DNA of 64,000 nt from Candidatus Omnitrophota bacterium (GCA_015231405.1 JADGBR010000001.1:385762-449761), one strand, 5' to 3'. Positions 776 to 58,232 are shown, numbered from the stretch's first letter. Made by a program: numbers and translations. The notes: generated by a model not told the origin, from the sequence alone.

Positions 776-3700
776 ATGTTACTTTCATTAGGCATAACCA
801 CAGCGATCAGTATGCATAAAACATTAGTGAAAAATTTACTAAACTATTTGCTAATATTATGTTTCATTTTAGAGGATATTTCCTGGGCCTTTGAAATTGA
901 ACCTTCCATCCGAATATCAAGCAACAATCTACAGGTGCAAACTCCTTTTAAGCCTATATCCGATGAAGACATTGGAATGACACTAAGATTGAAAGCACTT
1001 ATAAAAGCGGCACTTTCGTACATAAATCAGGAAGTAAAGATCGATGATGAGTTGATCGCTGACTTTGACTCATGCCTTTCCCCGGCTGACGGGATGAAAC
1101 ATTTATGGGAACCGGTTACTTTAGACGGCAATGATATATCCTGGGCCAGGTTCAATTATCTATTGGATTTTACAGATCATGGCACAAGCATATCGGGAAA
1201 AAGGAAGGAAGGAATAAACTGGGTAATAGACTGCTCCATAGGAAAAGGGGATGAGTTCTGGGAATACGAAGCGGTAATAACACCGGATAAATCAGTATAT
1301 TTAAGGATACCCGGTACGGACGACTATATCGGTGAGAGACCCGGACAAACCCAGGGTGATAGCAAGCGGAAGGGTGAAGACCCCTATTTTGGAGAAGGTC
1401 AAGGATTATTAGGGACTATGACGTCGGATGTGGCGTATAGCGTGTCAAAACGCGATTATTTGTGGGAATACCCAAGGGCTGAGAACATATTGCCGGAACT
1501 TAATAGGCTTTTTCCTTTAGACAAAATTAAAGCGGTTCTGGGCGCGGATATAGAGAGAATTAAGGTCGTCTTTCAGATATTCAGAAAAGACGATACGGCG
1601 GCGGAGTTCCCGGGAAAAGAAATATTCGCAGAGATGATCTATCCGTATAGCGGGTCGAATCAATTCGCGATAATATTCACGGAAAAAGCATATCACCTTT
1701 TCATGGAAGCGTTCAAGGATGACCTTGAACCTTTACTTAAGGCGATGATGTTTCACCTTTATAGCGAGTTTTATTGCAGAAAGCCCAGGCATATCGCTTA
1801 CCTCATGGCGATACAAAAATATCCCGCTGAGATGGCGCGGCTCGCTAAAGTATTCCCCGAACTCCGGTTCGAAATAAAAGAAGACATACGAACGGATATC
1901 CTTGAAGCTACGGGGTTCAAGGGCGATCATAAAGCAGAAAAAACGTTTGACCTTATGATGTCAAAAGGGCTTGCGAATAATAAAAACTCTCTTGAAATAA
2001 AGGCTCTTTTTGGTACTGTTCGGTTCATAAAAACCGAAAGGCGATGTTCCACTGATAAGGCCTTCGACTGTTTGGGAAAGTTGATCAACGCGGGAAGCGT
2101 AACAAAAGACAATATCGATAAGGTCAATGAGTTCTTCCTAAAAGTCACTGAAAGGATGGACTATTCCGGGGATTGGATGCTTGATGAAGTTATGAGGTTC
2201 ATAAATAAGATAGAAAGGAAGAAACTTGACAGGTCGGCTATCGGCATGGAGTTTCTCAGTTTTATAAGCGAGCATGATGAACACACCGCGACAAGCTCAT
2301 TCAGGGTAGCCGGTATCATGGCAGAATCCGGAATAGTGAACAAGAGTAACATGCACAAGGTAAAAGAGTTGATAAACTGTCTATCCGGGAGTTTCGGGTT
2401 CGGATCGCTTGATCATAAAGCGCTTTTTAAGGCTCTTGGCAGGGCAAAGCTGCTTTCTCCGGATAGATTCGGGGAAATACACGCCCTATTGATCCAGTTG
2501 TTTTCATACAAGACAGGCACCAGAGACTGGCCTGACGGGTATAGGAGCGAAAAAACGAGAGCCATCATACGGTTGGCTAAAAAGATCGGTGACGGGAAGC
2601 TGAATGTTCAGGCAAGTGACTTAAAATGGCTGATACGGACGATCTCGGGTATGAGACATTCGGTAAGCGTTTATAATGTTGTAGATATAATGGCAGTATT
2701 CTGGGAAACCGGTATCGCTGGAAAAAAGGATCACGGTAAACTGTCGAAACTGTTCAGGAGAATGGATTCACTTCCGATACTCGATGAGGATCGCGATAGG
2801 GGCGACGGTAACCCTTATAAATCGCTGATAAAACTGGCTGAAGACACACTCGCCGGCAGGATCCATAAGGAACAGGTGGACCTGGATATGCTTATACATC
2901 TCTGTCGTGATGACTGGTCCGTAGATTCTAAACAGGAAATGTATCGGAAAATGCTTGTTTTAGGACTTACCGAAGGTCTTGGCAAAAGAGAAATAAAAGT
3001 GGTATTGGATAAATTCTCGGATGATTATTGGGGTATATCGCCGAACCTTGACGAAATGCTGGTTAATAAGGAGAAGTATAGGCTCGATCTCCCTGAGCCG
3101 CGACTGTTTGTAAGGCTTGTTAAGACAATCCCTGGAAATATTTCAAAAGCGATGAATTATATCAGTATCCTTACTGGCATACCGGGCTATAACTTCTCAA
3201 ATTGCGGTGATCTCGCGGAACTCTTGGAATTAACCAAAACTGCGGTTGACAGGTTTCAGGGGCAGAACGCTTTCGAGGACGCCATTTATTACGCGAAAAA
3301 GGTGCGGGATGAACATCTTCCCGCGGACGCTATAGACCATTCGATCGTAATGAAGTTATACCGGCGTACGCATAAAAATGGAGATGAAGATACAAGGCTT
3401 CGAAATCAATTCTCCATTCTTGGATCCGCGGCCGCTATCGGGCTGGATATACGCGCCGGGTATGACGAATTGGCGGAGTTCCATGATATGTTCGGAAGCC
3501 GCTTCGAGGAGCAGTCTGAGCATGCACTTAGTGTTTATGTGAGATCGGTCATCGATGAGAAACTTGATAGGAGTCTCGTTGATATTAAATTCTTAAAGGT
3601 CCTCTTTGGCAATGTTTCACATTCATACATAGATTCGGCAATTTCAGAGATCTTGAAAACCGCCAGAAGAATAAAGATCGGTGAGCTTCCCGGCGGGCCT

Positions 3701-6700
3701 CTTAAAAATGGTATGCTCCTAGGGCTCGGCGAGCTATCTTCCAATTATCATGTGAATGTATTCACGACGTTTGAGCCGCTCCTCGAAGCTCTGAAAAAAG
3801 GGGATATACGTCCGGGGCTGCTTTCCCCCGATTTGTTCCTGTCGATAGAGGCGGATACAGGCGCGAATAAAACCTACGCGGCTTTATTATTTAAGACTCT
3901 CGCTGAAACAGGGGCTTTAAAAAATGTCAGTAAAGCACGGATCAAGAAGTATTTCCGAGAAGCCGGGAAGTCGATAAACTCCTGGGATGATTGGAACTCA
4001 CTTGACCATATAGCTTCCATGGCCAGCTCTCTCTATCATGACGATAAGAAAGGCGTATTCGAATTGCTTGGTAAACTCGCAAAAAATTACTCCGGATCTA
4101 TGAGCGTTCTAAAAGAACCTTTTTCGACTCTCCGAAACCAGTTAATGAGGATAGAACCCGAGAAACGGAAAGATATCAAAGACCTTGTTATGAGGATTTT
4201 GCAGCACCCTGACAGTAACCCGGGGAAAGCGCTTGTCACTATAGGCGCGTTCATTAATTTTTCGATAATTTCAACAGGCGATGCGTCAAATATCCAATGT
4301 TTTCTGGATAATATCATGAAGATGGAAACAGATAGAGGTGAAGCCTGGGAAATATTGACAGAACTCGCTGAGATGGGTGTGTTACACGATGAGAACATCG
4401 GCGATCACATAGCGCTATACGAAAAACTCGCTCTGGTAGAAGGGCCGGCCGCCAAAGGATTACTCCATTATGTAAGAGCGCTTAAAAACCTGGATATAGG
4501 GTCCTTAATGATGGACCTTGAACTGCTTACACTTATCGCCGGCGCGGGAGTGCGTAACGTATCAACGCTTTACGATAATCTCGGACCGGTAATAGTAGCA
4601 TATTCAGAAACCAGCGGGAACGTGGGATGCGATGAATTCTTGAGAACGCTTAAGGAAGGGATAAGTGACATAATTAACAAGGGTGCCGGAGAGGACGCGA
4701 TCCTTGAGTTCCTTATCGCGCTAAGGAAAGATTCAAGTCACATACTGGCCAGCGCTGTAGATGCTGTGTCACGGTCCGGATCGGCAATAACAACCTATGA
4801 GGGTTACAAATATCTTCTTCCTGACGAATTGAGGCATATAGCTCTAGACCCATCCATCGAAGAAAGAATAGCGCTAATTAATGACACGAATTTTATGAAC
4901 GGAGATAATCCCGTGTATTTATATCTACTCATGCGGAAGGAAAGCCCCGCGGCGGACGAGCTTTCCTGGGAAGTGTTCAGCGGCATCTTACGCGACGGGA
5001 AAACATTCAATTCTTACTATACGGCAAGCGTGCTCAAATTCATTCAAAAGGCGGTTTTCCACGCCGAGGCCGAACTTGAACCCGAACAGCAGGAGGAGAT
5101 CATAAAACTCTCTATAGCCCTGCATAAAAGCTTTCTGGAAATAGCCGGAAAAAGCGCTGATCAGGGCGCGCCGGTAGTGACTTTCAGGGAGCTGGTTAGG
5201 TTCAATGTCGATTTCTCGAAGTTCTATCTTAAGGAAGAAGGGCTGAAGAACGTATTCGAGATATTGATCCTAACTTCATACAACATATACGGCAGGGTAG
5301 TAACTGACGCCGGTAAAAAGAATGAATTTATAGAAAAGCTTTCCGAAACACTTAGGTCGAAAAAGTATAAAAAACTCCTCATCGAAGGCCAGCGGGATTC
5401 CATTACTATACGCGGTAATCTTTCCCAGCTTATAGAAAGGATCATAGACTATGGGCATTATTCGAAGCTGGATAACGAGCCCGGCCAAAACGATATCCCG
5501 ATAGAAACGTCGTTAAGGGCTTTTATTAAAAGGACTGAGGAAGTGCACCGCCCGGAACTGATGATATTAGACGATGAAAATACTATATTCTTCCAGAATA
5601 TGATCGAAAAGTTATCATCCGAACCAGACAGGGTCATTATCCCCGTTTATATGAACGCTTTCACCAAAAGGCAGGACCTTTTCGGCAAATATGTCCCGAA
5701 AGAGCCCATGAAGCTTGAAGACGCCGCGCGGATAATTGAACTTACCGGAAACTACGATCTCGTAACAGCGATATCCAATGTACTTGGTATCGACCGTGTA
5801 CGCGCGAATGAGTATCTTCTTAAAATGAACGATCCGGATACCCGCATAGAGGAAAACGTTATAACCGCGATCGCCGCATCCATAAAGTCAGGTCCTTTGT
5901 GGAGAGAGAACCTGGTATGGGAGGACGGGATCCTTATCCGTATCGTAAAAGCCGCGGCTAAAAACAGGAAAAAGAAGTTTACGCTCCTTTTCCAGAACAT
6001 TGATGCCTGCCCGGACGAGGTCCGGGTCGAGCTTAATCCGGTACTATGGGAGAATATGATAGAGATACCCGGCGGAAGCGGCAAAATGGATATTACGCCG
6101 AACCTGAATTTCCTGTTCACAATGCACGAGGGATCGCATATACAGGACCCCGCATTCATGGATAGGCCGCTAGTACATAAAATAATGAACGTAAGTGACA
6201 AAGACATAGTAACTTATATAAAGAATGAAGCAAGGCTCGGCGGGGCCGTGCTAGAGCGGCTTATGATGTTCTATAGAGCTGTCAAAGATCCGGCTAATGG
6301 AATTGATATCGAAGCCGGGCTTAACGACTTAATAGAAATAGCTAAAAGGATAAGCGGGCGGGCCGTCGAATACGGTGAAAAGGATTCCGATATAATGGAT
6401 GAAGAGATATATAGGTACCTTTCCCTTAAAACTCCGGATAAAGGCTCAAAAGAAAAACTATGGCGGATGATATCTCCCCGGCGTAGGATCTTCAAATGGA
6501 AACCCCCTGTATCCGATATGGAGGTAAAGAACGGGTCGATCATTTTCAACGGCGTCGGTGTAAAGTTATCCGAAGGAACAATGCTAAAGTGGGGACTTTC
6601 TCCAAATGGGAACGTTAACAAAAAATCGGTAATGAAGATGCTCCTCGACCACTCAGGTTATACCGTTACGGACACTGAGATAGACATTTTCGCGCAGTTA

Positions 6701-9700
6701 GCTCGCGCTATGAAATACGGGGCGAAGGCGATACAGCTCGTCGGACCTTCCGGAGAAGGGAAAACCGAGATAGCGAAGGTGTTCTCAAATATCATAGGGT
6801 ACGGCCTTAATGAAAGAACCGTTAACCAGGATACGGACCTTGCGGATATTCGTGGTGAAGTGAGGCAGGACGAGAACGGAAAGTATTATCTGCATGAACC
6901 GGAGTATATCAAGTCCATCGATAAAGAGGGGCATGTCTTCCTTGTCAATGAGGTAAATACCGGGAATAACGGAGGACTCTACAACTGGTATTTCCCGGAG
7001 ATATCAGGCGCGACCTTTAAACCTCTTAATGAATTTCCGCCGATGGACGGTTCACTTGACAGGTCCAGAACCATAAACCGCGATAATTTATGGATCTTTA
7101 CGGCAAATCCCGATACTACATCGGGAAGAGAAAAAACTCCCGGGAGAGTCTCGGCCCATCTCACAAATTTCTATATGGCCACGGATCCGAAGGATATAGG
7201 GCCGATATGCCGGGACCTGTTCAAGAAAGACAGCTTAAACAAATACGTTAAAAAAGGCAGGATACTGGCTAGGGTTCACAGAAAATTCTATGACTTGAAA
7301 TTGAGCGGCGCGTACCGGGGAGACCAGGATGTTACCAGGCGCGAGCTTATATCAGTAAGGGATAAATTCGAGGCGTATATCAATGATAAGATCGAACCCG
7401 ATACAGCGTTCAGGCAGGCTTTGTATGAGGTATACGTGTATGGATGGAGAAGCCTTATAGACGGAAAACTCGCAAGAACGACTCTTGGTCCCATGGTGAG
7501 GACCGGAGAACTGTTGTCTATGGATGTGTCGTTAAAAGCTTGTTTAAAGGATCCCAAGAAGCCGGTAATATTTTTTAACGACAGCGCGACAACGGGATTC
7601 GATCCCGGTAAGGCCATAGCAGGTATGTTTCCAGATGCTAATGTAAAGAACGTTGTTTTAAGCTATTTTCACCGTAAAAGGCAGCTTTTGGGTGGTTTTG
7701 TCCCCTATGATTCTCCGGATAAGGACGATAAGGAGATGCCGGATGAACTTAAGCACAGATTTATGAGAGGGCTGGGTATTCTGCCTAAAATGATCGAGGA
7801 GGCGAGGTTTGACCGAAACAGAAAAAAATTCATGGTTTTAAGAAATTATACCAGGCTTAATTCGAGGGTGGCGCCGATAATGAACGAGTTCCTCCAGACA
7901 AGGCATATCGCCGAAATGGAGGATATAGTCGATGAAAGGACTGCATATCAGTTAAGATCGAAATTGATCGATAGAAATATGTTCGATGAAGTTTACGGCG
8001 AATTTCTGGAAAAGAATAACGGAATAGAAAGAGACAAAGAAATAACGCGCGAAACCGCAATGCGCCTCGCCAGATGGTTCTACTCGAACGCCCCGGATAA
8101 CCTCTATATCGTAGCCGAAGGGACGTCGAGCGGAGAATCCGATCTTGGCCCTCCCGAGATCAACCGGTTCAACGCGTGGAACACTTCCATTGAAATTGAT
8201 GACAAATGGATCGACGGATACCTTGACGGGAAGATCTCCGGCTATCTTGAACCTTTTAAGGATGTCATAAAAGACGCTGTAAAACGGATATTCTATCTCT
8301 ATGACTTTGAGGCGACATGCGGCGATAATGAATATAACCGTATGAGCGTGAGAGATATAGATAATTTCATTGAAGTATTGAGGGCTCAGGCCACATTAGA
8401 CGATAAAACTATCAAGGAAACCGCTTATTACGCGATGGCTTCCGGGCTCCGGACGAAATATCTCGAGGGTCTAAAGGACATGGTTCCGGAAATTAAAGAC
8501 CCTGCTGATCATATTAAAAAGATAAGGGCAAGAAGAGGCGGATATCTGTCAACTGACCCCGAATATGAACATCTCGCAGACACGGAAAAACTCGCGCGGC
8601 TTTACATGTCCTTCAATATGGCTTTCTCGGCTTCGAGGACAGTCATTTTAGAGGGCCCTACGGGGGGAGGCAAATCATCCGCGGCAAGGGATATAGCGAA
8701 AAGGATGGGCCTTCCTTTCTATGAGATACTCATGTATGACGACATTGACCCCGGCGATTTTCTCGGGAGGATGACAAAGTCAGGGAAAGAATTCATCCTG
8801 ACATGTGATACGGAAAAGCGAAGGCTCCTCATCCCATTTCTCAAAGCTTATACGAAAGGCGGCGTATTCCTTCTCGATGAAGGGGCAATGGGTTTGCAAT
8901 CCAAAGAGGTCATTACATTCTTAACAACGCTCGCTGAGCTTGGAGAGATCGATCTTAATGATCATCATCCCTATGCCGTCGGGAAACTGGATATCCTTAC
9001 GCGTCACCCGGACTTTCACCTTGTTATTGCCCAGAACCCCGGAGGAGAGACTATGGGGCGGACAGAACTCTCTTATGAGGCGATGTCGTCAGCTTTTAAG
9101 ATATGGGTGGATAATTTCATAACTCGGGCGGATTCCCTGAGGATGATCGACCATTATCTCGGAGATCTTTCGTCGAATGTGGAAAAAAAAGATAAAGCCG
9201 TAATATCGGGGATATATGAAAGCTTTTACAAGAAACACCCGGAGGACGGGTCGATAAGCCCGAGGCAGTTGATAACGTCAGTTAAAGTCATAAAAAAACT
9301 ATTGGAAGAAGGGATCAATTTTAAAAAGGCCATTATCCAGGGAATGATAATCTCGTATATGCCTAATATGTCCGAAGATGAGTATGTTTCCTTGAAGAAC
9401 GAGATAGTTTCGATGATCGATAAATTGATCGGGGATGACGATAGGCCAGGCTATAATGACGCGATAAGATCTACGTTCGAACAATGGGAAATGACCGCGG
9501 ATGTTAAGAACTCCGATGGCATTCTCAGCTTGAACGGTTTAGTCCTCCCGTATTCACCCGGCGGATCGAATGTCGACCCGAAAACTATAAAAATAACAGA
9601 AGACCTCGCTTCATTCAACAAGGTGATAAAACATATGGCCTGGGGGATCGCGCTGGATAAGCCGGTTGCCCTCCTTGAAGAGGATGGCGCTGACTCTTTG

Positions 9701-48200: not shown

Positions 48201-51200
48201 ACATCGGCTATCCCTTCTATAGTAAGATCTCCCGCTGCCATCATCTTTACGATACCCCTATGAATAGCGATGTTATACCCAACGTATTTATCTCCTCTGG
48301 CCTTTTCGCTTACCAGCCAGGCTTCATGGGTTTCTTTCGCGAGTAGCAGTAATGCCTGGTTATCACTATCGTTGAGTTCTAATGTGCCGGATTCGAACGC
48401 CTTTCTCAATCTGTCGTTCTCAGCCTTTACCTTCATTAACCCCTCATATACGGGTAACGCCCCTGCCAAACGGGCCTCTACCTCTATTACGTCGGTATCC
48501 CAAGCCTTTGACAAAGCAAGGATGATGTCTGAGTTCACTTTATCTTTTACCTGCTGGGCGCTTCCAAACACGCCTTCCAGACTCCGGCCGTTCCCTAAAA
48601 CATTGACAAGGTCTTCTAATGTGACAAATTTTGCTTCTTCGATCCTCTTTTTGCAATAATCATACACCTCTTTTTCGAAATCACCCCATTCTTTTTCCTC
48701 TGTATCGCTGATCCACTCTATTTTCGTTGCCCTTCTGCCTTTTTCTTCTTTATGATATTCTTCTATAAGATTCAGAACATCCGCCGGCATCATATTGTCG
48801 ATCATGAATTTCATAAGATTCATCATGCCGTCTCTATTTTTACCGAACTTGACTTGCGCCCAGGCCCAGCGATGCGAACCGGCAACCTCAACGCTGCCTC
48901 TATTCCTGCGGTCCTTAACTTCATGTTCTTTTAAAGCCTCCAGCATAGCCGGATCCGATTTAAGCATTTCCATGGTCTCTCTGGTAACACAAATATCAAT
49001 TTCATCAACATTCCTGCGCTTTTTTCTTATTGCGAAATTGATCTTCCGGTCCGCGTTAAAGAATACCGGCTCAGTATGCATATTCGGTTGTAATACCCTG
49101 AAATGAACCTTATAACCGTCATAAGGAGAACCCTTTTCGCTGTATACCAGATCCTGATAACCTTCTTCCGGAAGCGAATTATTGAACACATCCTGAGCTG
49201 TCTGCCTTGGGTCGCCTGCCGTATCCCTAACCTGGTCGCCTATCTTTACGGCGGCTGAATTTTCGCTGCCGGTTATATGAGCGCTTGTTATCTCACTTAT
49301 ATTCAAAATAATATTTTTAAGATCGCCGTTCACTATCATGGCGTCCTGTTCATTTTCCGGCTTTGAGCCTTTGTATATACCCACGCTAACCGTTCTAGCT
49401 GTTTCCCCGTCACCTTTCATGTCCATCTTAAATGAAACTAAAAGATTGTCTGCCTTATCGATCTCACTTCCTGAAATAACGACATAAGACGATTCTGTCT
49501 TGCCTCCTAGCGCCGACTCATTCCATTCCTGCTGGACAATGAAATTCTCGCCTCTTCCAATTTTCGCCAAAACCGCTACCTGCCTTTCTATGCGCGCCCG
49601 GTCAGGGCTTTCTACATCGGAAAACGCCGACAGTATCGCGATATTGGCATTCGCGGGATTTAAAGCCATTACCATGTCCAAAAACTTGTCAAATTCCGAG
49701 ATATCGCCGGATAATAATCTGAAATATGGACAGCCTTCGTACACCTTGAATTTAGGCATCACGCTGATATATGAATATCCTTCCGCCGCGCAAAGTTCGC
49801 GGAGATTGCTTTTATGAAAACCTCCTGTTACGAGCACCGCGATATTGGTACCGTCGGCAATCAGCTTATCGTTTATCTTTGACATGAACGCTTCATCGCG
49901 CTCAAAGGAACAGTCATAAAATTTTTCCATCTGCTGCATAAAACCGTCCAGTCGATCGATACTTTCCGGAAGCTCAGAGGCAAAACCGTGTTTCCTGTTG
50001 AACCCATTAAACAACCTTTTAATGTTAGATACGCTGAATTCGCTTTTGTGGCTTTTGTAATAAAGGTAAGTGTCTTTTACCAGGCCCGCTCGCAGTAGAT
50101 CCCCGATTATTTCTAAATGCTTCTCAATGAGATACAGATCTTTCTGGTCATCCTCGCTCATAAGAGATAGCATAAGTTTCTCCTCGATCGCGGCGAGCTC
50201 TTTATGAAGCATTGCTTTATCAATTTTTTCAAACTGCTCAAGATACGCAGAATATTTGACCAGATTAGGCAGCTCATCGAAATCAATAAGCTCCTTCCTC
50301 GCCTTCCTAAAAAGATATTTATACAGATCATCTTCATTAATGTCCTTCGTCCCGGCCTTCAAAGACATCATCGCTAATTCTTGTTCGTCATTTCTGGACA
50401 GCTTTTTGCTCAGCTTTTCGGTCAAAAGGTTTCTTTCCTGTCTCGCCTTCCTGAAATCTATATATTGTTCCTGCTCGATAACCTTTACCAGATCATTAAA
50501 ATGCCCATATCCATCCATCGATACGCCATAAGTGCCGCAGTTTTTATTTAAAAGCAATACCAGTTCTTTAAATCCGTCTTTTTTGCCCCTCTGATCTTTA
50601 AGGCTCCCGCTGACCTGTATCATTTCTTTTGAATAAATCTTGCTTCGGTAATTTAAAACCATGCTCGTTAACGTATTGATATCTTTTTCAGCTTCATCTT
50701 TAAAAGACATGGAATCCCTGAAAGCATTGAGGTTTTTAAAATATAGCTCAGGCATTTCCACCCCGAAAAGTTCTACAGCCTCCGGATTTAATAATTTAAA
50801 GTATTCAGGTCCGCTTAGGCGTCCTTCCCTCACAAAATAATCGGCTATTTCCTCTCTGATAGCGGTATCCTGAATGTCAGTGAAAACTGAAAGATCATAT
50901 TGCCCGCTTCCACCTTCCAGAAAAACAAGGTCTACCCCGTGATTGGCCGATAAATATCCGATAATATTTGAAATGGACTTTTGCGCGAAGTAATTACAAT
51001 GCGCGTCTTGAATATGCAGAATTGTTTTTCCGTTTGTGCCTGGAAGAACATCCTGTACACTGCCCATGCTTAAAGGTATATCCAAGCCGGCAATATCTGG
51101 CGGCACTTGTGCTTGCAGGTTTTCAGCTTTGGCTGAAGTCTCAAACGAACCGAAAGAAAATAGACTAAACATAAAGAAGACCGAAGTTGCAAGTGATACG

Positions 51201-51235
51201 TAATTAGTAATGGTCTTTCGTTTATAAATATTCAT
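45257..51235 (-). CDS. Giant 1992-aa secreted protein with the shared N-terminal twin-GX2H domain, an internal ~230-aa duplicated module and the shared C-terminal EVLRSL domain
   Basis: AAGGA lies 7 nt upstream of the ATG at 51235. Signal peptide MNIYKRKTITNYVSLATSVFFMFSLFSFGSFETSAKA. ILHIQDAHC (~50999-51025) and TGGFH (49814-49828). Duplicated modules ALLLLAKETHEAWLVSEKARGDKYVGYN... (~48360-47700) and ALALLAKQTHQAWLEGEKARGYQYVGYN... (~47050-46350), each ending ...WRLKNPWGG.... C-terminus ...INVNEIREFYKAETEVLRSL. Confidence 0.9.
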   Translation of the reverse strand: MNIYKRKTITNYVSLATSVFFMFSLFSFGSFETSAKAENLQAQVPPDIAGLDIPLSMGSVQDVLPGTNGKTILHIQDAHCNYFAQKSISNIIGYLSANHGVDLVFLEGGSGQYDLSVFTDIQDTAIREEIADYFVREGRLSGPEYFKLLNPEAVELFGVEMPELYFKNLNAFRDSMSFKDEAEKDINTLTSMVLNYRSKIYSKEMIQVSGSLKDQRGKKDGFKELVLLLNKNCGTYGVSMDGYGHFNDLVKVIEQEQYIDFRKARQERNLLTEKLSKKLSRNDEQELAMMSLKAGTKDINEDDLYKYLFRKARKELIDFDELPNLVKYSAYLEQFEKIDKAMLHKELAAIEEKLMLSLMSEDDQKDLYLIEKHLEIIGDLLRAGLVKDTYLYYKSHKSEFSVSNIKRLFNGFNRKHGFASELPESIDRLDGFMQQMEKFYDCSFERDEAFMSKINDKLIADGTNIAVLVTGGFHKSNLRELCAAEGYSYISVMPKFKVYEGCPYFRLLSGDISEFDKFLDMVMALNPANANIAILSAFSDVESPDRARIERQVAVLAKIGRGENFIVQQEWNESALGGKTESSYVVISGSEIDKADNLLVSFKMDMKGDGETARTVSVGIYKGSKPENEQDAMIVNGDLKNIILNISEITSAHITGSENSAAVKIGDQVRDTAGDPRQTAQDVFNNSLPEEGYQDLVYSEKGSPYDGYKVHFRVLQPNMHTEPVFFNADRKINFAIRKKRRNVDEIDICVTRETMEMLKSDPAMLEALKEHEVKDRRNRGSVEVAGSHRWAWAQVKFGKNRDGMMNLMKFMIDNMMPADVLNLIEEYHKEEKGRRATKIEWISDTEEKEWGDFEKEVYDYCKKRIEEAKFVTLEDLVNVLGNGRSLEGVFGSAQQVKDKVNSDIILALSKAWDTDVIEVEARLAGALPVYEGLMKVKAENDRLRKAFESGTLELNDSDNQALLLLAKETHEAWLVSEKARGDKYVGYNIAIHRGIVKMMAAGDLTIEGIADVNAFNGAKTKFKIKKNDLKFRPGNSAADFWKLIGKKADTFDDGDIVIKNIAGSWDDLVEIADNVEGIDPAGRKAYLYQLQADSVGAIINAMQDAELMSRMVSDNVDEAKQAVIEMLRNINAVWRLKNPWGGYNDKLLNRPFDVSENGIGVKEIKKDFDVMKAIFAVLGKDIGKYALNPGVVGILQKDAEKINDILLELDSEAALEAEILKNTRERPEVESLSGIGEDISGALAAESFLTENAAKRKVAQAITERLQALGVEDEVISLYSGSIRNLTEVYQKGDNDFRVRAGKNINSLKHVKLNLVPKTVKDLTDMFADKAVIQGSFSYDVFYAMAEEWNVRQWEIIARMKNGLTNYDALKSLQKISGDMRDKFVNETRSIYDSAGNDALALLAKQTHQAWLEGEKARGYQYVGYNKQIHDFLLGLLKNGELEIIGVKDAETFNGTKAKFKIKKSDLRFKGDTAVSNEDIFWRDVVGKDRSRFGDDDLVIKMVSGEWDDLAEIADEARRKFLFNLQADSVGTIINTFQTKRDLVKILGMKPSGDGRGLSANKIHALQRNAIIDMLRNINAEWRLKNPWGGFTDILLNKAFDTKERGGIGTDEIMKDFAVFKAILKVLHDNINSLALESDVKDDIIKAYEASQYELDRMSNRDEMEKSIVINAMSKPGNRQVPTFAGVPAGDVPDEEVTSAKMPGKNGGVSAHEINSQKPSVERETSALKNIEKPSIVIKVNGLEPISVDSDIFMDLMAKAKDLDMGIFAKCSKNIFEGEETFIGIGRNAEAAGEIDSVLQGYIQEVRGAASDKIKELKLGNITIRFFDETNPDEVHDIAAMTEQYGVNKAIVFTSRNEGDMRNEEVEKNAYMVYLGTENPEGKKTQPVEGSILAGIAYLDSAHWASRLERAPTDVSLYLEDINEATELFAKRLALMSGTVNYMDFLDMIAPKDSEQVRRLVASGEILVVIRPINVNEIREFYKAETEVLRSL

Positions 51236-51440: not shown

Positions 51441-54400
51441 TTACAACGACCTCAACACCTCTTTCTGGGCCTCGTCCCAGTCGGCTATTTCCTGGTAATT
51501 AATACGGGTTATCTGCATCCGGATAGTACCCTGGAACACTTTATTGAATAGGGTGTTCAATATGCCGTTGAGCTCTGTTACATCGGTGACATTATCAAGG
51601 TTGTCTATCAGGTCCGAGCTTTCCGTGTTCATTTCGAAAAACCTGCATGAGTTGAGGAATAGCATATGTTTTTTAAGGATACGTGCCTTTTCAGCTTCAT
51701 TATAGTTGACTTCTCCGGCGATTATACGACTGTCGGCGCATAGAATATCGCCGACGGCGATTATTTTAGCCTCATCCGGTTTGTATGTGCTAAGGGTAGC
51801 GGCATCGACCGGATCGTACATGATTATCACCATGTTCTGTATATCGGGAGAATATCCGCTTAAAACTTCTTTAACAGTTAGTTTATCGGAGTCGGTTATG
51901 CAGTCGACGGTTATTTTGGGATAGGACGTTTTGTCCCTGGCTATAGCTTTCATTGCCAGATCGTCGATCGCGTACTTGAGTCGGGTCGCCAGATCATTAT
52001 CAGGGTTATCGTCAAAATGAATTACCTGGTCTTTGATCTTATCGTTTTTATCAGCTTTTCTTCTGAATTCCTGGTCGATCGTCGTCTGAACTGACGCCAT
52101 TTCCGGGTTCGGGCTTCTTATGAGGTGAATGTTCACCGTGCCTTTAAGCATATCGCCCCGCATGGACATCAGTTTCAACGTAAATGCCTGATTGGCGTCC
52201 GGGTCGATATGGTCCTGTAGGCCGAAAAGCCATTCTTTTTTCGGTGAGGCGTCCAATATTTTATGTTCCTGTGAGCTGTTGTAACGAATAAGAGCCTCTT
52301 CGCTGTCTGACATCCCCAGAGGCCTGGTAAGCTTGATCTTTTCTCTTAGTTCCGCTATAAAATCGTCAATGCCGAGTTTTTTCAACCCCTCCGGGGAGAT
52401 CTCTTTTAGGAGCGTAGCATAAGCTATCCTTACGTCTTTTCCTACGCCGCGCATAAAAGTATGTCTTGTCATTTTGGCGAATTCGGCGCCTTCCGGCAAT
52501 TCTATGAAACCTTCGCCGAGTTCGTGTATAAGCGCCAGCGGGTCATCGATCAGGTCGCGGTTCAGGTAGATCACACCTGTATTTTTGTCAATTATACCCT
52601 TAAGGTCATTATTGGCATCATTTTCCTCCATATGATCGATCGGGACCGCCCTACTGACTGAGCCAAGCGAAGTGATAAGCTTTTCGACGATCTTTCTGTC
52701 TTTTTCAGTCAGAGTGCTCCGCCCTTTTTTAGATAAAAGGGCCTGTATTGTGTCGATGATCTCTTTGGTCGGCTTTTCAGGGATGTCCTTCGGAATTGAT
52801 AGTTCGATGGCTTCCATATTATCTCCGCTTGTGCTCTTCACGGTAAGGAGGGTGTCGCTAGGTCTTTCGACGGCGAAACCGCCTGTTTTTAAAACGCCGT
52901 TTACGAATACCTTGCCGATGAGGCTATGATTTTCGGAATTCGCTCCTTCCGTATAGACAGGGTCGGGTATGAATGTTCCGTTACGTGAATTGAGGTCATT
53001 AACAATCCATCCGTCGGTGCTGCCCGGAATTATTTCGCAATGTTCTCTTGACGCTTGTCTATGCGTGACCATGATCTGTTCGCTGTCCCGGCCTATGAGG
53101 ATCCTGCCTATCCCCGTAATAACATTTCGTTCTTTTCCCTTGCGTATAACGGCTTCAACATTTCCTGACGCTCGATCGCGCATGACACTTATTATCTCGA
53201 TCACCGGCGCACTGCGGCTTGCGCCGATCTTGACAAATCTGGGATTTGGTGCGATATTGCCGACGGCTATCCGTTTCCACTGGGTAGGTTTGTCGGTAAA
53301 TGTTCCGTTCCTTGATTCAAGGTCGGTAAGGATAATAGTATCTCCATATCTCCTCAGTTTAAAATGCTCCCTCGATACTGAGAGTTCGGTGACAAAGTGC
53401 GTTCTGAAAATATCTCCCTTCCTTCCGATGGTGAGCTCTTGGCCGTCTTTTAGCGCTTCCGATATCGATAACGAATCAAGGATAACCCCTGGACGGCTCA
53501 ATTTAGTTAAAACGATCCTGTTTCCATAGAAATGCAGAATAAAGTTCCCGAACTTCACTCTTTTGGGGTCTATGACGGGGTTGATCCTGTCTTTGGCGGG
53601 ATCGGTCAGATCCCGGTCGTTTTTAGCCTTGTACCAGATACCATCATCAAGATCGGATACTTCGTCCGGGTTTAATACGGATGTTATCTTAGGTACGGTC
53701 ATTCTGGTGCCGTTAAGTGATCCCCTGTCCGTTACTTTAACAAGGATCTTGCCGTCGAGCATATAGAATGTGAGCATAAGATGGTTTCGGGATATACCCG
53801 GCGAATTTCTCGGGTATCTATTAGGTTCCGCGTTGTTGAAGTTATTACCTATTGTTATGGGCGTATTGAATTCAATCGTATGATTTTCGTTCCCTATCCG
53901 GAGCATCCTGACATTTGCTGCGCCGGCCGTAATTGAGCAAATTTCATTTTCAGGAGCGTCGGCATTTTTCCCCGAAATGGTAAAATGTATTTCATCAGAA
54001 TCGTTATTAAGCGTTATTAATCGCGGGATCATGCTTGAGGTATCGCTTCTATGCATATCGAATGACAGTCCGGGTTGAGGATTTAAAGGCATCACCGGCA
54101 GTAAAGCCAGGCTTAGCGCCCGTTCCATAATAGTATTGGATACCGATCCCGGGTCATTATCCAGCCGGGCGAGGACATCGGCGACAAGTTGATGTCTCAT
54201 TGTCCAATCGTAAATATCGTTATAGACCGAAACAAAACTTGTTATGGCTCTACGTGTTGTCAGAGCCAGGTCATCCGATTTCCCCGCGATGATAGCTCTT
54301 CCGGTCCGGTGATACTTTTCATGCAAGAGGATCAAACCCTGGTGGCTTATAAGATTCCTTTCGACGGCCCAAAGGAGCTGAGCTTTAGCCAGATCGATCC

Positions 54401-57400
54401 TGAGAGCCAAAACGTTTTCCCTGTTCTTCAATACGGGTGGCTCTAGGCCGTAATAAATAGCGAGCTCTGAAAGTTGGTCGACGGTCATGTTGGGGCGGAT
54501 GTTATTCAGCCGTTCGCCCATTACCGTGCCTTCAACCAGAAGGTTTACACTGTCAGAATCCATGTCAAGCGAAACATCGCTGACGGGAGACGACCAGCCT
54601 TTATCCATATCTTCATCGGCGATCTTCCCGTCCTGTTTCATAGCGGAATTTAACGATAGATAAGCATTCGCCGAAGAATATCGGTTAAACGGGATATCGC
54701 TGTCAGCTTTGACATGCCCCATGAATTTTTGGAGAAAAATATACTGCGAGGGTATGGATATATCCCTCACTTTCCAGAATTGCTGTTTGTCCGGATCCGG
54801 TCCTTCATGAGGTTTTGAAATATCGCTCAAGTGAAATCCGCCATCAGAGAGGAGGTTAAGTATCTCGTCTATCCTGCCTGTCTTGACCCACCCTTCGACT
54901 TCGGCGACTTTCATGGGGGATATGCTGTCTTCGAGACGCAAAGCAAGTTCCTCGATCACGGTCAGTTCCCTGCCAAGCTTCTTTTCGTAGTTAATTATTT
55001 TCGTCTGAAGAAATGACTCGCGGATATAATCCGGAGAAATGTGGTATCCGGACCCCGTTTCTGTGGGAGTGACGCCTGCATAGTATTCGACAGCGCCTTG
55101 ACCGGTCCCAAGTGTTGGCCTGGCTTCGATCCCGTTCATTCTCCTGTATAGCTCAAGATAATGATCCCGTTCAGCGTCAGTTATGAACCCCGAAGTACGA
55201 TAAAAATCAAGAAGGTATTTAGTCGTTATAATTCCCCCTCTACCCCTGTCCTTGCATACAAGGAACGGCGCGCCATATGTGAGCCTCTCAATATTATGGG
55301 CAAAAAGTTCATTAAGGCTGTTCCCCCACGTTAAGGGAAATTCCGTAAGTCTCTGGCGATCATGAGCTCCGACGATATCCCGGAATTCTTCAACTTTTAC
55401 CGGAACATCAGCTACTCCAAGTACAGGCGTACTATCGGTTATCATCCCGAAATTCCCTTTTATGAACCGTTCTCTGTCAGGGATGGGGCCCAGCCAGTTC
55501 AAAAATGCGACATGACCCAATTCATGCGGGAAAACTATGGGATACTCGGATACCCCCATCCTGTTACTAATAGGGTCATATGACATATCTCCCGATACCG
55601 ATAGACCTTTATTTTTTATCTCGCCGACCAGCAGGGTTACAAGAGATTCCGGTATGACTTTTTTGACCTCACTTCCCATCCCTTTACCTTTAGAATTTAT
55701 CCCCATATAAAACTGTCCGGTAAAGGGATGTTTCCCGCCGATCATTGAAACTGCTATGTCATCACCGTCGGGAAGGATGCCATGATCGTCCAGTACTTTC
55801 ATTTTAGCCTTATTGTCAATGAATTCGCGCAAAGCTTTGCCTAATGGGGTCTGGCCTGAGGGAGTATCAATGGATATGCCAGGATGATAATACGGGGTAG
55901 TGAACTCGATTATTCTTCTATGTCCGGACCTTCTTTTCGGGTCCCCTGGGAATGAATTGCCCAGGGAGGTGTTTTCCAGGACTTCATGCAGGAGATATTC
56001 GTCCAGCAGATCCATGTCGCCTGTTTCTATCAAATGCTCGATAAAATCGATGGCAAGGGCGCTTTTGTAACCTATGATATATTTATCGCTACTTTCGACA
56101 TTGGACCTGAATAATTTAAAAACCTGCTGGATAGCTCCAGGCTGACCGCTGGTAAGAAGGGTCTGATAATCGTAAAGTTTTAAGGATACTTTCCCGTATT
56201 CGTCCGCCGTTAAAGCGGTTTTTAAAGCGGTTGTAAGTTTCATGGGTTTCCCGTTCTCGAACATGAGAGCGAACCGTTCGGTCGTGACGCGGACAACATC
56301 CTTATCTATTTGCCATTCTTTTAAAAGATTGTCACTGTCATTGAACCAGTCGGTTATCTCCTGGGGAAGGTATCCGCCGGATATAGTACCGAGTTCAGCC
56401 GGAGATATTTCGGGTGAATTATCAATGCGAGCCAGGATCTCCGGAATGGTTATTTCTAACCTTTCCCCCTGTCCGATGGAAGCGATAACGGCCTCATTGG
56501 CTACTAACGCTATTTCGTTCTTATCCAGGTTCTCAGCTCTTATCCTGGCCATTTCTTTGACGATCTTTACCGCGACCTGAAATAGGTCCATCCCTTCCCC
56601 GCCCCAGACTTCAACGCCCAGCGTCGAAAGATGGGAAGCTACCGCTATCATGGCTATTTCGCTCAGGGCCGGTTTTATCGCGAGTTGTATGTCGGTTGAA
56701 AAACCCGCCAGGAGGTCGAAGTAGGGGTTCTTGTACCCTTCATCGCTCTGAAATTTCGGGATGACGGATATATAGGAGATATTATTCTCGCGGAACAGCC
56801 TCGCCAGGTTCTCGGTGTGAAAACCTCCCGTAAAAAGTATGGCGGCTTTTTTGCCGCCGTAAATATCGTCGAATTTCAGGTTGGCGAGGAATGTCTCATC
56901 CCTGGAAAATGAGTATTCGAAGAAAGCTGTTATCTCCCCGATATAGCCGTCAAGCGCCTCTATCCCGGAAAGGTCAGGCGTCGCGACGGCGTATTTGTTA
57001 GCGGCTCTTTTAATGAAATCCGTGAAAACCGACGCGGTTATGGAGTTCTTGTTATCAACATAGAAACGATAGTCGGATCTTGTCAGCTTAAAAGCGAACA
57101 TGTTCTTGAGTAAAGAGAGGTCCATAGAAAGCCTGTCGAGCTTTTTTATGTCCTCGTCGGTAAAGAGCCTGTTCTTTAATGCCGTTTCAAGCCCGGATAT
57201 TTCATCCATAAGCCGGGACCTGTCAACGGATTCATACGCGTTTATATAGTCGACATATCTGGTGAGCGACGGATATTCGCCAAGGTCAAATCTAAGTTCA
57301 GATGCCTTTCCCAAAAGATAAGCGTAAAAAGTTTTCAGAGTTACTACCTTCTGCTTATATTCGAGCGTTTTTACGGCAAGCTCCTGGGTCTGGTTCCGGG

Positions 57401-58232
57401 GGAGAGATCTCTTAAGTTTGTCCATGAGGCTGTATTGTTCCGAATCGGCCTTTTTAAAATTCACTTTTTCTTCCATTTCAAGGGTCATGGCAAGAGTGTT
57501 CAGGTTGCTGAAACTGCTGATATCTATCTTATTTTCGGAACATTTTTTTATAAGAAGATGCAGGTAATTCTTGAGTTCCAGGTCGCCGGCCCTGTATTTG
57601 GCGTAATTAGAATCGATCTCCATAAGCTCCGGGGCATAAAGCTGTTTTTTGAACGCATCCAGCGCGGCCGTGATCATGGAAAGATATCCGTCGACTTTAT
57701 CCTTATACGAGAGAGAATCCCTGTAGACTTTAAGGTTCTTGAGATAGAGTTCCTTTTCCTCAACGCCCCAGAGTTCGGATTTTTCAGGGTTCATTATGGC
57801 GTAAAGTTCAGCGCCGTTGACCTGGCCTTTTTTAACAAAATAATCGGCAACTTCTTTTCTGAGGACAGGCTCGGGGATAGACGTGAAAACATTGAGATTA
57901 TATTCACCGGCGCCTCCTTCCATATTGATGGACTTCATGCCATATTCGCTGACAAAATAATCTATAATGTTAAAGATCTTATTTTGAGCGAAGAAATTAC
58001 AATGGGCGTCCTGTATGTGTATGATCACCTTATCGGAATCGCATTTGTTGAGGTAACGTACCTCCCCAAGATGCGGCGGGACATTGATTGTGTCAACATC
58101 AAGGAACGATGTTACCGATGTACTTTCAGCCAGAGGGGTAAGCTCGGGATTTGACATTTGTGCCGGGCTTTGGCCGGTCAGTAATGCCAAGATCGTGATA
58201 AAAGTAATGATAGAACGGAAATATTTTCTCAT
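51441..58232 (-). CDS. Giant 2263-aa secreted protein with the shared N-terminal twin-GX2H domain, an HExxH (HELGH) motif, three FHA domains and the shared C-terminal EVLRSL domain
   Basis: Signal peptide MRKYFRSIITFITILALLTGQSPAQ. IIHIQDAHC (~57999-58025) and FTGGFH (56817-56831). HELGH at ~55497-55511. FHA motifs: SRNHLML...DRGSLNGTRM (~53650-53830), SREHFKL...DLESRNGTF (~53290-53470), SREHCEI...DLNSRNGTF (~52960-53130). C-terminus ...INYQEIADWDEAQKEVLRSL. Confidence 0.9.
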   Translation of the reverse strand: MRKYFRSIITFITILALLTGQSPAQMSNPELTPLAESTSVTSFLDVDTINVPPHLGEVRYLNKCDSDKVIIHIQDAHCNFFAQNKIFNIIDYFVSEYGMKSINMEGGAGEYNLNVFTSIPEPVLRKEVADYFVKKGQVNGAELYAIMNPEKSELWGVEEKELYLKNLKVYRDSLSYKDKVDGYLSMITAALDAFKKQLYAPELMEIDSNYAKYRAGDLELKNYLHLLIKKCSENKIDISSFSNLNTLAMTLEMEEKVNFKKADSEQYSLMDKLKRSLPRNQTQELAVKTLEYKQKVVTLKTFYAYLLGKASELRFDLGEYPSLTRYVDYINAYESVDRSRLMDEISGLETALKNRLFTDEDIKKLDRLSMDLSLLKNMFAFKLTRSDYRFYVDNKNSITASVFTDFIKRAANKYAVATPDLSGIEALDGYIGEITAFFEYSFSRDETFLANLKFDDIYGGKKAAILFTGGFHTENLARLFRENNISYISVIPKFQSDEGYKNPYFDLLAGFSTDIQLAIKPALSEIAMIAVASHLSTLGVEVWGGEGMDLFQVAVKIVKEMARIRAENLDKNEIALVANEAVIASIGQGERLEITIPEILARIDNSPEISPAELGTISGGYLPQEITDWFNDSDNLLKEWQIDKDVVRVTTERFALMFENGKPMKLTTALKTALTADEYGKVSLKLYDYQTLLTSGQPGAIQQVFKLFRSNVESSDKYIIGYKSALAIDFIEHLIETGDMDLLDEYLLHEVLENTSLGNSFPGDPKRRSGHRRIIEFTTPYYHPGISIDTPSGQTPLGKALREFIDNKAKMKVLDDHGILPDGDDIAVSMIGGKHPFTGQFYMGINSKGKGMGSEVKKVIPESLVTLLVGEIKNKGLSVSGDMSYDPISNRMGVSEYPIVFPHELGHVAFLNWLGPIPDRERFIKGNFGMITDSTPVLGVADVPVKVEEFRDIVGAHDRQRLTEFPLTWGNSLNELFAHNIERLTYGAPFLVCKDRGRGGIITTKYLLDFYRTSGFITDAERDHYLELYRRMNGIEARPTLGTGQGAVEYYAGVTPTETGSGYHISPDYIRESFLQTKIINYEKKLGRELTVIEELALRLEDSISPMKVAEVEGWVKTGRIDEILNLLSDGGFHLSDISKPHEGPDPDKQQFWKVRDISIPSQYIFLQKFMGHVKADSDIPFNRYSSANAYLSLNSAMKQDGKIADEDMDKGWSSPVSDVSLDMDSDSVNLLVEGTVMGERLNNIRPNMTVDQLSELAIYYGLEPPVLKNRENVLALRIDLAKAQLLWAVERNLISHQGLILLHEKYHRTGRAIIAGKSDDLALTTRRAITSFVSVYNDIYDWTMRHQLVADVLARLDNDPGSVSNTIMERALSLALLPVMPLNPQPGLSFDMHRSDTSSMIPRLITLNNDSDEIHFTISGKNADAPENEICSITAGAANVRMLRIGNENHTIEFNTPITIGNNFNNAEPNRYPRNSPGISRNHLMLTFYMLDGKILVKVTDRGSLNGTRMTVPKITSVLNPDEVSDLDDGIWYKAKNDRDLTDPAKDRINPVIDPKRVKFGNFILHFYGNRIVLTKLSRPGVILDSLSISEALKDGQELTIGRKGDIFRTHFVTELSVSREHFKLRRYGDTIILTDLESRNGTFTDKPTQWKRIAVGNIAPNPRFVKIGASRSAPVIEIISVMRDRASGNVEAVIRKGKERNVITGIGRILIGRDSEQIMVTHRQASREHCEIIPGSTDGWIVNDLNSRNGTFIPDPVYTEGANSENHSLIGKVFVNGVLKTGGFAVERPSDTLLTVKSTSGDNMEAIELSIPKDIPEKPTKEIIDTIQALLSKKGRSTLTEKDRKIVEKLITSLGSVSRAVPIDHMEENDANNDLKGIIDKNTGVIYLNRDLIDDPLALIHELGEGFIELPEGAEFAKMTRHTFMRGVGKDVRIAYATLLKEISPEGLKKLGIDDFIAELREKIKLTRPLGMSDSEEALIRYNSSQEHKILDASPKKEWLFGLQDHIDPDANQAFTLKLMSMRGDMLKGTVNIHLIRSPNPEMASVQTTIDQEFRRKADKNDKIKDQVIHFDDNPDNDLATRLKYAIDDLAMKAIARDKTSYPKITVDCITDSDKLTVKEVLSGYSPDIQNMVIIMYDPVDAATLSTYKPDEAKIIAVGDILCADSRIIAGEVNYNEAEKARILKKHMLFLNSCRFFEMNTESSDLIDNLDNVTDVTELNGILNTLFNKVFQGTIRMQITRINYQEIADWDEAQKEVLRSL
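52960..53830 (-). other. Cluster of three FHA (forkhead-associated) domains within the 2263-aa protein
   Basis: Three copies of the G-R...S-R-x-H...(S/D)xNGT(F/R) signature. See the CDS evidence above. Confidence 0.75.

Follow-up and report, generated by a model that had tools for sequence, protein, structure and literature searches.

Midasin-like chains of AAA+ modules ending in a VWA domain, encoded by giant genes of an Omnitrophota genome

Midasin (MDN1/Rea1) removes Ubl-domain assembly factors from pre-60S particles in a eukaryotic nuclear pathway, and bacteria have no 60S pathway; known MoxR proteins carry one AAA+ module per subunit and assemble as homo-hexamers. The concatenated ring of midasin and dynein has been placed "early in eukaryotic evolution" and traced back to MoxR proteins with a single module, MoxR and vWA genes are known in fused form, and dynein is described as having lost its VWA domain (PMC3495828); the MoxR clade has been defined, and MoxR-vWA ternary systems that contain a beta-propeller have been reported in planctomycetes and verrucomicrobia (PMC7159879). 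Midasin-like chains, in which six or seven dynein/MoxR-type modules are followed by a terminal VWA domain, have so far been described from eukaryotes alone. In the literature searched, with subscription journals outside its coverage, we found no description of concatenated midasin-like proteins from bacteria, and papers on giant proteins of the Omnitrophota do not mention AAA_5/VWA, midasin or dynein architectures, save for the abbreviation AAA_5 in one figure legend. Here we describe four giant genes, G1 to G4, in a stretch of 64,000 nucleotides (the window) from a metagenome-assembled genome (MAG) of a Candidatus Omnitrophota bacterium (GCA_015231405.1 JADGBR010000001.1:385762-449761). Two of them, G1 and G2, encode chains of this kind. 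The four genes, with lengths in amino acids (aa), are:

776-16144, plus strand: G1, 5122 aa; signal-like N-terminus, about 1300 aa of unknown sequence, AAA core, VWA domain and C-terminal domain, without a TIKI-like domain
25198-43686, plus strand: G2, 6162 aa; signal peptide-like N-terminus, TIKI-like domain, AAA core with WD40 insertion, HExxH region, VWA domain and C-terminal domain
45257-51235, minus strand: G3, 1992 aa; signal-like N-terminus, near-complete copy of a family of about 950 aa, a duplicated unit of about 370 aa in tandem, and C-terminal domain
51441-58232, minus strand: G4, 2263 aa; member of the same family of about 950 aa, with an insertion of about 1450 aa bearing FHA domains

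Pfam searches gave AAA_5 and AAA_6 matches, labelled "dynein-related", in G1 and G2. Both proteins have AAA_5 modules and, towards the C-terminus, a VWA domain; WD40 repeats are confined to G2. A preliminary description of the window had reported AAA+ motors, VWA domains with a metal ion-dependent adhesion site (MIDAS), WD40 repeats and FHA domains, and all of these were recovered: AAA_5 and VWA in G1 and G2, with the MIDAS motifs DISGS and DLSGS, WD40 in G2 and FHA in G4. G1 and G2 are modular paralogues, as that description had held, and BLAST aligns them colinearly in five blocks. A custom hidden Markov model (HMM) built from the clear AAA modules counted exactly three canonical modules (A, B and C) in G1, G2 and the metagenomic relative P0003, whereas the three eukaryotic midasins put to the same HMM gave five or six. 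The core plan is a degenerate AAA+ module followed by a canonical AAA_5 module, repeated three times, then an HExxH region in most members and then the VWA domain; module mapping resolved d1, A, d2, B, d3 and C in G2, six AAA modules in all, and a seventh in G1 through a duplication of d3. G2 carries a beta-propeller insertion at aa 2784-4430 or thereabouts, against about 1020 aa between the corresponding blocks of G1. The modules lie as follows:

4727-6727, plus strand: G1 degenerate AAA module d1 and lid, aa 1318-1984
6701-7171, plus strand: G1 AAA_5 module A, aa 1976-2132; Walker A GPSGEGKT, Asn in place of the Walker B Asp (VNE in the A2 alignment)
7130-8611, plus strand: G1 degenerate AAA module d2, aa 2119-2612
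8612-9118, plus strand: G1 AAA_5 module B, aa 2613-2781; GPTGGGKS, FLLDEGA
9569-12172, plus strand: G1 degenerate modules d3a (aa 2932-3339) and then d3b (aa 3374-3799)
12161-12667, plus strand: G1 AAA module C, aa 3796-3964; LLIDEAN, missed by Pfam and found by the family HMM
14516-15115, plus strand: G1 VWA domain, aa 4581-4780; MIDAS motif DISGS at 4591
26884-28566, plus strand: G2 degenerate AAA module d1, aa 563-1123
29191-29694, plus strand: G2 AAA module A, aa 1332-1499; GATGAGKT
29686-31266, plus strand: G2 degenerate AAA module d2, aa 1497-2023; carries IFIIELENIHRIKPGLAVAFNSILQEG
31267-31776, plus strand: G2 AAA_5 module B, aa 2024-2193; GPPGGGKT, YIFDEGA
33547-38487, plus strand: G2 beta-propeller/WD40 insertion, aa about 2784-4430, absent from G1; strong WD40 signal at 3570-4430
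38599-39861, plus strand: G2 degenerate AAA module d3, aa 4468-4888; confident model of the AAA+ alpha/beta fold
39832-40302, plus strand: G2 AAA_5 module C, aa 4879-5035; GDTGAAKT, LIVDEAN
40879-40893, plus strand: G2 HELRH motif, aa 5228-5232
42220-42843, plus strand: G2 VWA domain, aa 5675-5882; MIDAS motif DLSGS at 5685

The segments that precede the canonical modules ("pre" segments) are degenerate AAA+ modules. In hhalign comparisons of alignments of up to 50 members, the three were mutually homologous (98.9-99.8%), and those preceding A and C matched the canonical modules at 89.5-92%; the segment between A and B reached only 0.7% against the canonical modules by itself and is linked to them through its match of 98.9-99.6% to the other two. 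Best matches of the pre-modules to midasin AAA modules were 95-99%. Of 15 comparisons of two-module units (pre plus canonical) with consecutive midasin modules, 13 gave alignments of 418-563 columns at 99.4-99.9%, and 2 spanned only about 250-275 columns. The consensus of the third pre-module, with "PGAR" at the Walker A position followed by "LVxHNIDAxPExVRxALNNxLLxG" and "FSSAFxNRF", reads as an AAA_5-like pattern stripped of its catalytic residues. An AlphaFold2 model of G2 residues 4447-5318, built from a 13-sequence family alignment (mean predicted local distance difference test score (pLDDT) 75.6, predicted TM-score 0.73), contains two successive beta-alpha-beta AAA+ domains with lids, and on our reading of the DSSP string both modules have beta-hairpins at the helix-2 insert and pre-sensor-1 positions. 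The best structural match of this two-module model in Foldseek was to consecutive AAA modules of the dynein heavy-chain motor domain (E 1e-15, probability 1.00, 600-750 columns, equivalent to two modules), at a TM-score of only about 0.4.

The catalytic motifs are distributed unevenly among the modules of the 50 family members that have three of them. Module A keeps Walker A in 48/49 members and the Walker B DE in 3/49, module B keeps them in 48/50 and 42/50, and module C, with the family consensus GETGxAKT, which we take to resemble the MCM motif, has Walker A in the relaxed form G....[GA]K[ST] in 41/50 and the Walker B DE in 41/50. The pre-modules have lost Walker A, which is kept in 0-1 members. 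DxSxS is present in 27 of the 32 VWA domains found across the family. An HExxH motif, followed by a conserved "ED.RI", stands between module C and the VWA domain in 36/50 members, including G2 (HELRH at 5228); G1 lacks it, though its closer relatives have "HELGHVMD...ELNSMLFP". The sole peptidase match of the region was a weak one to Peptidase_M60 (E 0.018), and we therefore treat the region as a lead. Of the HExxH motifs, which the preliminary description had listed as metalloprotease-like, the one in G2 alone is conserved in the family.

G1 and G2 share with midasin a chain of some 5000 aa, several AAA+ modules of the MoxR/dynein clade, a distant C-terminal VWA domain with a DxSxS MIDAS (DISGS and DLSGS, both inside the Pfam VWA matches) and the retention of catalytic motifs in only some of the modules. 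By hhalign, the best matches of family modules to midasin modules were 95-99.5%; the canonical modules matched all six midasin modules at 97-99.5% and the pre-modules at 5-99%, with no clear one-to-one pattern, and in a register test M12/M34 came out slightly above M23/M45. The tandem AAA modules are six in G2 and seven in G1, but they are built as a triplicated pair of degenerate and canonical modules, unlike those of midasin. Further differences are that none of the giants has a 100-aa window with more than 30% Asp plus Glu, or any long Asp/Glu-rich region (G2 has a Gly/Asp/Glu-rich stretch of about 170 aa just before the VWA domain); that there are additional parts, namely signal-like N-termini and a C-terminal domain in both proteins and a TIKI-like domain, a WD40 insertion and an HExxH region in G2; and that similarity over whole sequences is only E 1e-13 to 5e-5. 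From their sequences, G1 and G2 appear to resemble midasin in layout but not to be members of the midasin family.

The likeness to dynein extends to the mixture of hydrolysing, binding-only and degenerate modules, while no stalk/microtubule-binding domain, linker or tail was detected in G1 or G2, and both have the VWA domain that dynein is described as having lost. With the MoxR-VWA pairs NorQ-NorD, CbbQ-CbbO and RavA-ViaA they share the coupling of this AAA+ clade to VWA/MIDAS. Membership of the AAA_5 clade is indicated by the Pfam matches, by the helix-2 and pre-sensor-1 hairpins of the model and by weak matches to NorQ/CbbQ, which, together with FHA matches, were all that a PDB sequence search with G1, G3 and G4 returned. 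The VWA/MIDAS partner is fused into the same polypeptide. In contrast to those pairs, six or seven modules are concatenated in chains of 4-7 thousand aa, and no third component was seen. G1 and G2 thus belong to the MoxR clade and keep its coupling to VWA, but break the rule of one module per subunit.

The giants already catalogued in Omnitrophota (Archaeovorin, dockerin, multi-enzyme and tandem-repeat types) come from the same phylum, combine a signal peptide or membrane targeting with cytoplasm-type domains and form sequence-unique families with few annotated domains; G1 has its end modules in common with a multi-enzyme giant, P0002. They differ in being at least 10 thousand aa long or encoded by open reading frames (ORFs) of more than 20 kb, against 2-6.2 thousand aa for G1-G4, and in features that G1-G4 lack, namely SecA_DEAD, dockerin/TSP3 and glycan-enzyme Pfam domains or many transmembrane helices. 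The comparison drawn in the preliminary description with giant-gene loci of this phylum is not supported, since the lengths of 10-30 or more thousand aa, the many transmembrane helices, SecA_DEAD and the glycan enzymes are missing; nor are proteins of 5-6 thousand aa, which it had called very rare, exceptional within Omnitrophota. MARTX toxins are alike only in their logic of conserved ends and a variable middle, and no RtxA repeats, autoprocessing cysteine protease or type I secretion signal was found in any tile with Pfam or NCBIfam.

When 1.84 billion cluster representatives were searched exhaustively with a profile, 1374 matched, and 77 of these reached E<=1e-30. Some 65 at the head of the list are proteins of 2-7.6 thousand aa, and from about E 1e-31 down there appear proteins of about 5000 aa with 7-9 matched stretches, which were taken to be midasins. 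A custom HMM survey found the constant order pre-A-pre-B-pre-C-VWA across about 50 family members, about a dozen of which, among those listed, open with the N-terminal module of G2. All 12 organism-named members are from Omnitrophota, and 11 loci located in GTDB species representatives with a six-sequence module-B alignment bear the labels Omnitrophota (7), Auribacterota (1), "uncultured bacterium" only (1) and Planctomycetia/-ales or Elusimicrobia (3). The family is so far known nearly exclusively from Omnitrophota, and the guess at this phylum made in the preliminary description was right, G1 and G2 both matching proteins of an Omnitrophota MAG. The accession numbers of two further members (P0035 and P0036), the partial MBF0216581.1 of 2764 aa and MBF0215968.1 of 5104 aa, lie close to those of G1 and G2, which suggests that the source MAG encodes these two as well, on other contigs, and so probably at least four paralogues. 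The possibility that G1 and G2 are eukaryotic midasins gained by transfer was rejected on two counts: the core is a triplicated pair with family-specific pre-modules, and 12/12 organism-named members are bacterial.

The four ORFs (5122, 6162, 2263 and 1992 aa) were recovered at exactly the coordinates first reported, and the window has a G+C content of 46.7%, slightly below the 48% or so given then. From the base composition of the window, with a stop-codon frequency of 0.055, the probability of such stop-free runs is 1e-126 for G1, 1e-152 for G2, 1e-56 for G4 and 1e-49 for G3, which agrees with the earlier statement that they are vanishingly unlikely by chance. Frameshifts inside the ORFs had been named as grounds for doubt, and none is indicated, because purine and G peak at codon position 1 of the called frame in every 900-nt block of all four. 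G+C at third codon positions (GC3) is even along G2 (0.57-0.63), which argues against a chimeric join in mid-gene. At NCBI, G1 and G2 are MBF0215716.1 and MBF0215721.1, both annotated "MAG: AAA family ATPase [Candidatus Omnitrophica bacterium]" and both on the same MAG contig of 490,973 bp. The NCBI start of G1 is Met68 (5055 aa), and the additional upstream part, 776-979, includes a hydrophobic segment; we favour the upstream start as the more likely one, given that the unrelated giant P0002 has an N-terminus to which G1 residues 15-196 align. It is very improbable that the giant ORFs arose by chimeric assembly or join genes that are translated separately. The source is a MAG and the GC3 of G2 is unlike that of its neighbours, but the coding periodicity is in frame in every block, the shift in GC3 falls at gene borders, the module order is identical in about 50 family members, and MAGs with other isolate names contain homologous ORFs of 4993 and 4969 aa that run without interruption and are colinear with about residues 1317-4780 of G1. 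The observation of four giant ORFs is thereby confirmed, and an assembly artefact is unlikely.

The giants are also connected through their termini. A module of about 520 aa at the N-terminus is common to G2, G3 and G4 at 29-33% identity, and a homologue search with it found 25 proteins, mostly of about 950 aa, all the organism-named ones being from Omnitrophota; one of those of about 950 aa is annotated "conserved hypothetical protein, secreted". The module itself matched neither Pfam nor NCBIfam, and no Pfam domain was found in any of the 25 homologues. The features concerned are:

25345-26907, plus strand: G2 TIKI/erythromycin-esterase-like N-module, aa about 50-570
49736-51088, minus strand: G3 TIKI/erythromycin-esterase-fold domain, aa 50-500; AlphaFold2 pLDDT about 90
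56553-58100, minus strand: G4 TIKI-like N-module, aa about 45-560; 38-47% identical to Omnitrophota proteins of about 950 aa
46175-48622, minus strand: G3 tandem duplication, aa about 872-1235 and 1319-1687; unit of about 370 aa, 38.9% identity, E 3e-76
52953-53855, minus strand: G4 FHA region; two clear FHA domains at about 1617-1649 and 1712-1755 and one weak at about 1460

The AlphaFold2 model of the N-module (pLDDT about 90 over residues 50-500) has an alpha/beta core with a parallel beta-sheet, as expected of a TIKI fold, broken by a helical insertion of about 300 residues. Across a 28-sequence alignment, H74, I75, Q76, D77, A78, H79, E107, G108, E144, E160, R446, D447, G471 and G472 are invariant and H474 nearly so. 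The superfamily has a catalytic 2His/2Glu constellation (a His-Glu pair), for which H74, D77, H79, E107, E144, E160 and H474 are candidate counterparts. Structural neighbours include the host-delivered effector domains RRSP, HopBA1 and PMT, and the spacing of D77-x-H79 and E107 equals that of E3900-x-H3902 and E3930 in RRSP, a correspondence of spacing in sequence. The module is probably an Omnitrophota-specific domain of the TIKI/erythromycin-esterase fold and a predicted active hydrolase, differing from the rest of the TIKI/TraB/erythromycin-esterase/ChaN/RRSP superfamily by the insertion of about 300 aa inside the fold and by having only Omnitrophota among the organism-named of its 25 homologues; the preliminary description had overlooked this, the real hydrolase-like element of the locus. 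G3 consists, over its first 890 or so residues, of an almost complete copy of the family of about 950 aa, followed by the duplicated unit and then by the C-terminal end of the family. The duplicated unit, of about 370 aa, matched no family, and its repeat motif "LLAKxTHxAW...KARG..YVGYN" presumably recalls RyR-type repeats. G4 is a protein of the same family split by an insertion of about 1450 aa with two or three FHA domains.

At the extreme N-termini all four giants have a positive stretch, a hydrophobic core and an AxA-like site, judged by eye, which is in keeping with the secretion signals noted earlier, and each giant has 0-3 hydrophobic segments. At the other end, the last 220-240 residues or so of G2, G3 and G4 align end to end with the C-termini of the family of about 950 aa, and the last 195 residues of G1 are 42% identical to the C-terminus of P0002 and 25% identical to that of a smaller protein of the window, o3. 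P0002 is an unrelated multi-enzyme giant of 6938 aa whose N-terminal 180 or so residues are also in common with G1. The terminal features are:

812-892, plus strand: G1 N-terminal hydrophobic signal/anchor-like segment, aa 13-39; aligns with the P0002 N-terminus
15497-16141, plus strand: G1 C-terminal domain, aa 4908-5122
43012-43683, plus strand: G2 C-terminal domain, aa 5939-6162; of the type of the family of about 950 aa
45260-45976, minus strand: G3 C-terminal domain, aa 1754-1992
51444-52154, minus strand: G4 C-terminal domain, aa 2027-2263
16973-18415, plus strand: o3, 480 aa; five hydrophobic helices and C-terminal domain at aa 255-480

The two C-terminal subtypes were regarded as one domain family on the strength of o3, which the HMM of each recognises (E 1e-96 and 1.8e-22); a homologue search with the C-terminal-domain alignment found only three short fragments. 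Signal-like N-termini and this C-terminal domain family are common to all four giants and o3. With conserved ends and variable middles, the N- and C-terminal parts may, we infer, form a common targeting/docking scaffold that takes varied cargo. The protein o3 could be a membrane partner or dock.

Around the giants, the retropepsin-like protease and the GH5 hydrolase given in the preliminary description were found as described, and the gene it called YD-repeat-like proved to be a 445-aa ORF with no Pfam or NCBIfam family match. The neighbouring features are:

18743-23263: o4, 1506 aa; signal-like N-terminus and BACON_2, ASH/MSP-type and HYDIN-like Ig domains
43854-44066, just 3' of G2: intergenic tandem repeat with a 39-bp unit, 5.4 copies, 94% matches
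44284-45094, minus strand: type VII pair of HepT toxin (151 aa) and MntA antitoxin (129 aa) between G2 and G3; NCBIfam E 4.5e-33 and 3.5e-24
58336-59166, minus strand: retropepsin-like protein with an N-terminal hydrophobic helix; TIGR02281 clan AA protease model, weak PADLOC PDC-M08B match (E 6e-7)
62625-63962, minus strand: the 445-aa ORF called YD-repeat-like

No similarity of o4 to the giants was found in an all-against-all BLAST, and by its domains it looks like a secreted or surface protein. The GC3 of G2 (0.60) and of the 518-aa SDR gene o5 upstream of it (0.59), together covering 23300-43686, is high against 0.46-0.54 for all other genes of the window, which suggests a block with a separate history. 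This block may have been separately acquired. No tRNA or Rfam feature was found in the 64-kb window, and a PADLOC scan indicated no membership of a defence system. Because the flanks of the 11 related loci share none of o2-o5 and o9-o12 with the window, there is no evidence of a conserved operon, and the giants are linked by paralogy (AAA core, N-module and C-terminal domain) instead.

The reading that we favour, with moderate confidence, is that G1 and G2 would be ATP-driven, MIDAS-mediated protein-remodelling machines mounted on a common scaffold for targeting. From the parallel with midasin and the MoxR-VWA pairs (PMC3495828, PMC7159879, PMC13036017), we infer how the ring might close, how its modules might divide their labour, what the MIDAS might do and how the scaffold might serve: (i) the modules of each protein would close into a single-chain ring, in which B and C would hydrolyse ATP, A would only bind it and the degenerate modules would be structural; (ii) the MIDAS domain would grip an acidic residue of a target protein, and ATP-driven movement of the ring would pull or remodel that target; (iii) the WD40 propellers of G2 would add binding surface; (iv) the midasin layout would have been reached by triplicating a two-module unit; and (v) the shared N- and C-terminal modules would constitute a targeting/docking scaffold into which different cargo has been inserted. 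Several points weigh against this reading. The modelled fold covers two of the six or seven modules, so that ring closure lies outside the model, and the module count of G1 is seven, not six. The C-terminal subtypes are linked through a single protein, o3, and their profiles gave no significant match when compared directly; neither the last 300 aa of G1-G4 nor the C-terminal domain of o3 matched NCBIfam, Pfam or a curated sorting-signal model (type IX secretion system C-terminal domain, PEP-CTERM and others). The HExxH region lacks a family match and its motif is absent from G1. None of o2-o5 and o9-o12 recurs in flanks of up to 10 kb at the related loci. Finally, the signal-like N-termini, judged by eye, would take the ATPase modules out of the cytoplasm to a place where no ATP is expected.

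This last point amounts to a conflict of compartments, because ATPase, FHA and WD40 modules need a setting that contains ATP or phosphoproteins, against the export signals, and the same paradox has been reported for Omnitrophota giants generally. We lean slightly towards action after export, on or in a host cell, which is possible; membrane-tethered work in the cell's own cytoplasm is only slightly less likely, and a purely extracellular adhesion machine distinctly unlikely. A tentative form of the first option is that the giants are modular effectors exported by Sec and delivered onto or into a host or prey, where their middles would work on host ATP. This is compatible with the remodelling mechanism set out above and differs from it only in the place of action. 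It would account for signal peptide-like N-termini in all four proteins, for a member of about 950 aa labelled "secreted" and for cytoplasm-type middle domains that vary between common ends, and it agrees with RRSP, HopBA1 and PMT as structural neighbours of the N-domain and with the host-dependent or predatory lifestyles proposed for Omnitrophota. But the domain searches revealed neither a translocation apparatus nor an autoprocessing domain nor RTX-type repeats, the window holds no secretion-system genes, likeness of fold to effectors is not proof of function, and the signal peptides were judged by eye.

It is doubtful that the proteins are instead a membrane-tethered cytoplasmic system, a fused MoxR-VWA chaperone or conflict system for complex maturation or defence, although AAA_5 with VWA is the hallmark of MoxR-vWA systems, the sole weak PDB matches are NorQ and CbbQ, a HepT/MntA pair is adjacent, several paralogues are probably present in the same MAG, and beta-propeller MoxR-vWA systems exist in planctomycetes and verrucomicrobia (PMC7159879). 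Against it, no PADLOC defence family, effector-type domain or third component was seen, and the N-termini look like cleavable signals, not anchors. The cell-surface machine for attachment or attack proposed in the preliminary description, in which VWA/MIDAS and WD40 would act as adhesins and the protease and GH5 hydrolase would attack the prey envelope, is improbable. Predatory bacteria are known to have adhesins with VWA/MIDAS (Tyson et al. 2024, as cited in PMC12428579), adhesin or degrader roles have been proposed for Omnitrophota giants, the N-termini are signal-like, and o4 with its BACON and Ig-like domains, GH5 and the clan AA aspartic protease are nearby. Yet Walker A and B are conserved throughout the family, which implies that ATP use has been under selection, and a place outside the cell does not account for this; G-beta-type WD40 and FHA domains are typically intracellular and, like AAA+ modules with conserved Walker motifs, of cytoplasm type; the GH5 hydrolase, the retropepsin-like protease and o2-o5 do not recur beside homologues; and the hallmarks of the described surface giants are absent. 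The proposal is not supported by these data.

To sum up what the locus means, the window is a stretch of an Omnitrophota genome with large proteins built from shuffled modules, and it adds an architecture that is not in the catalogues of Omnitrophota giant proteins. Since the proteins have N- and C-terminal modules in common, they may all be handled by one pathway, and proteins with export signals that carry ATPases, FHA domains and WD40 repeats sharpen an existing puzzle. The triplicated-pair layout in bacteria would imply either that the concatenated six-module ring evolved at least twice or that it is older than eukaryotes, and the members of the family may serve as compact natural variants for studying how ATP use is coupled to MIDAS in single-chain rings. 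More speculatively, and rather unlikely as it stands, the Omnitrophota may have dynein/midasin-like rings with MIDAS of their own, carried as cargo between export and docking modules and acting on host or prey proteins by means of host ATP; separable from this is the idea that the family, which is PVC-related, would be a prokaryotic sister lineage of the concatenated ring that gave rise to midasin and dynein.

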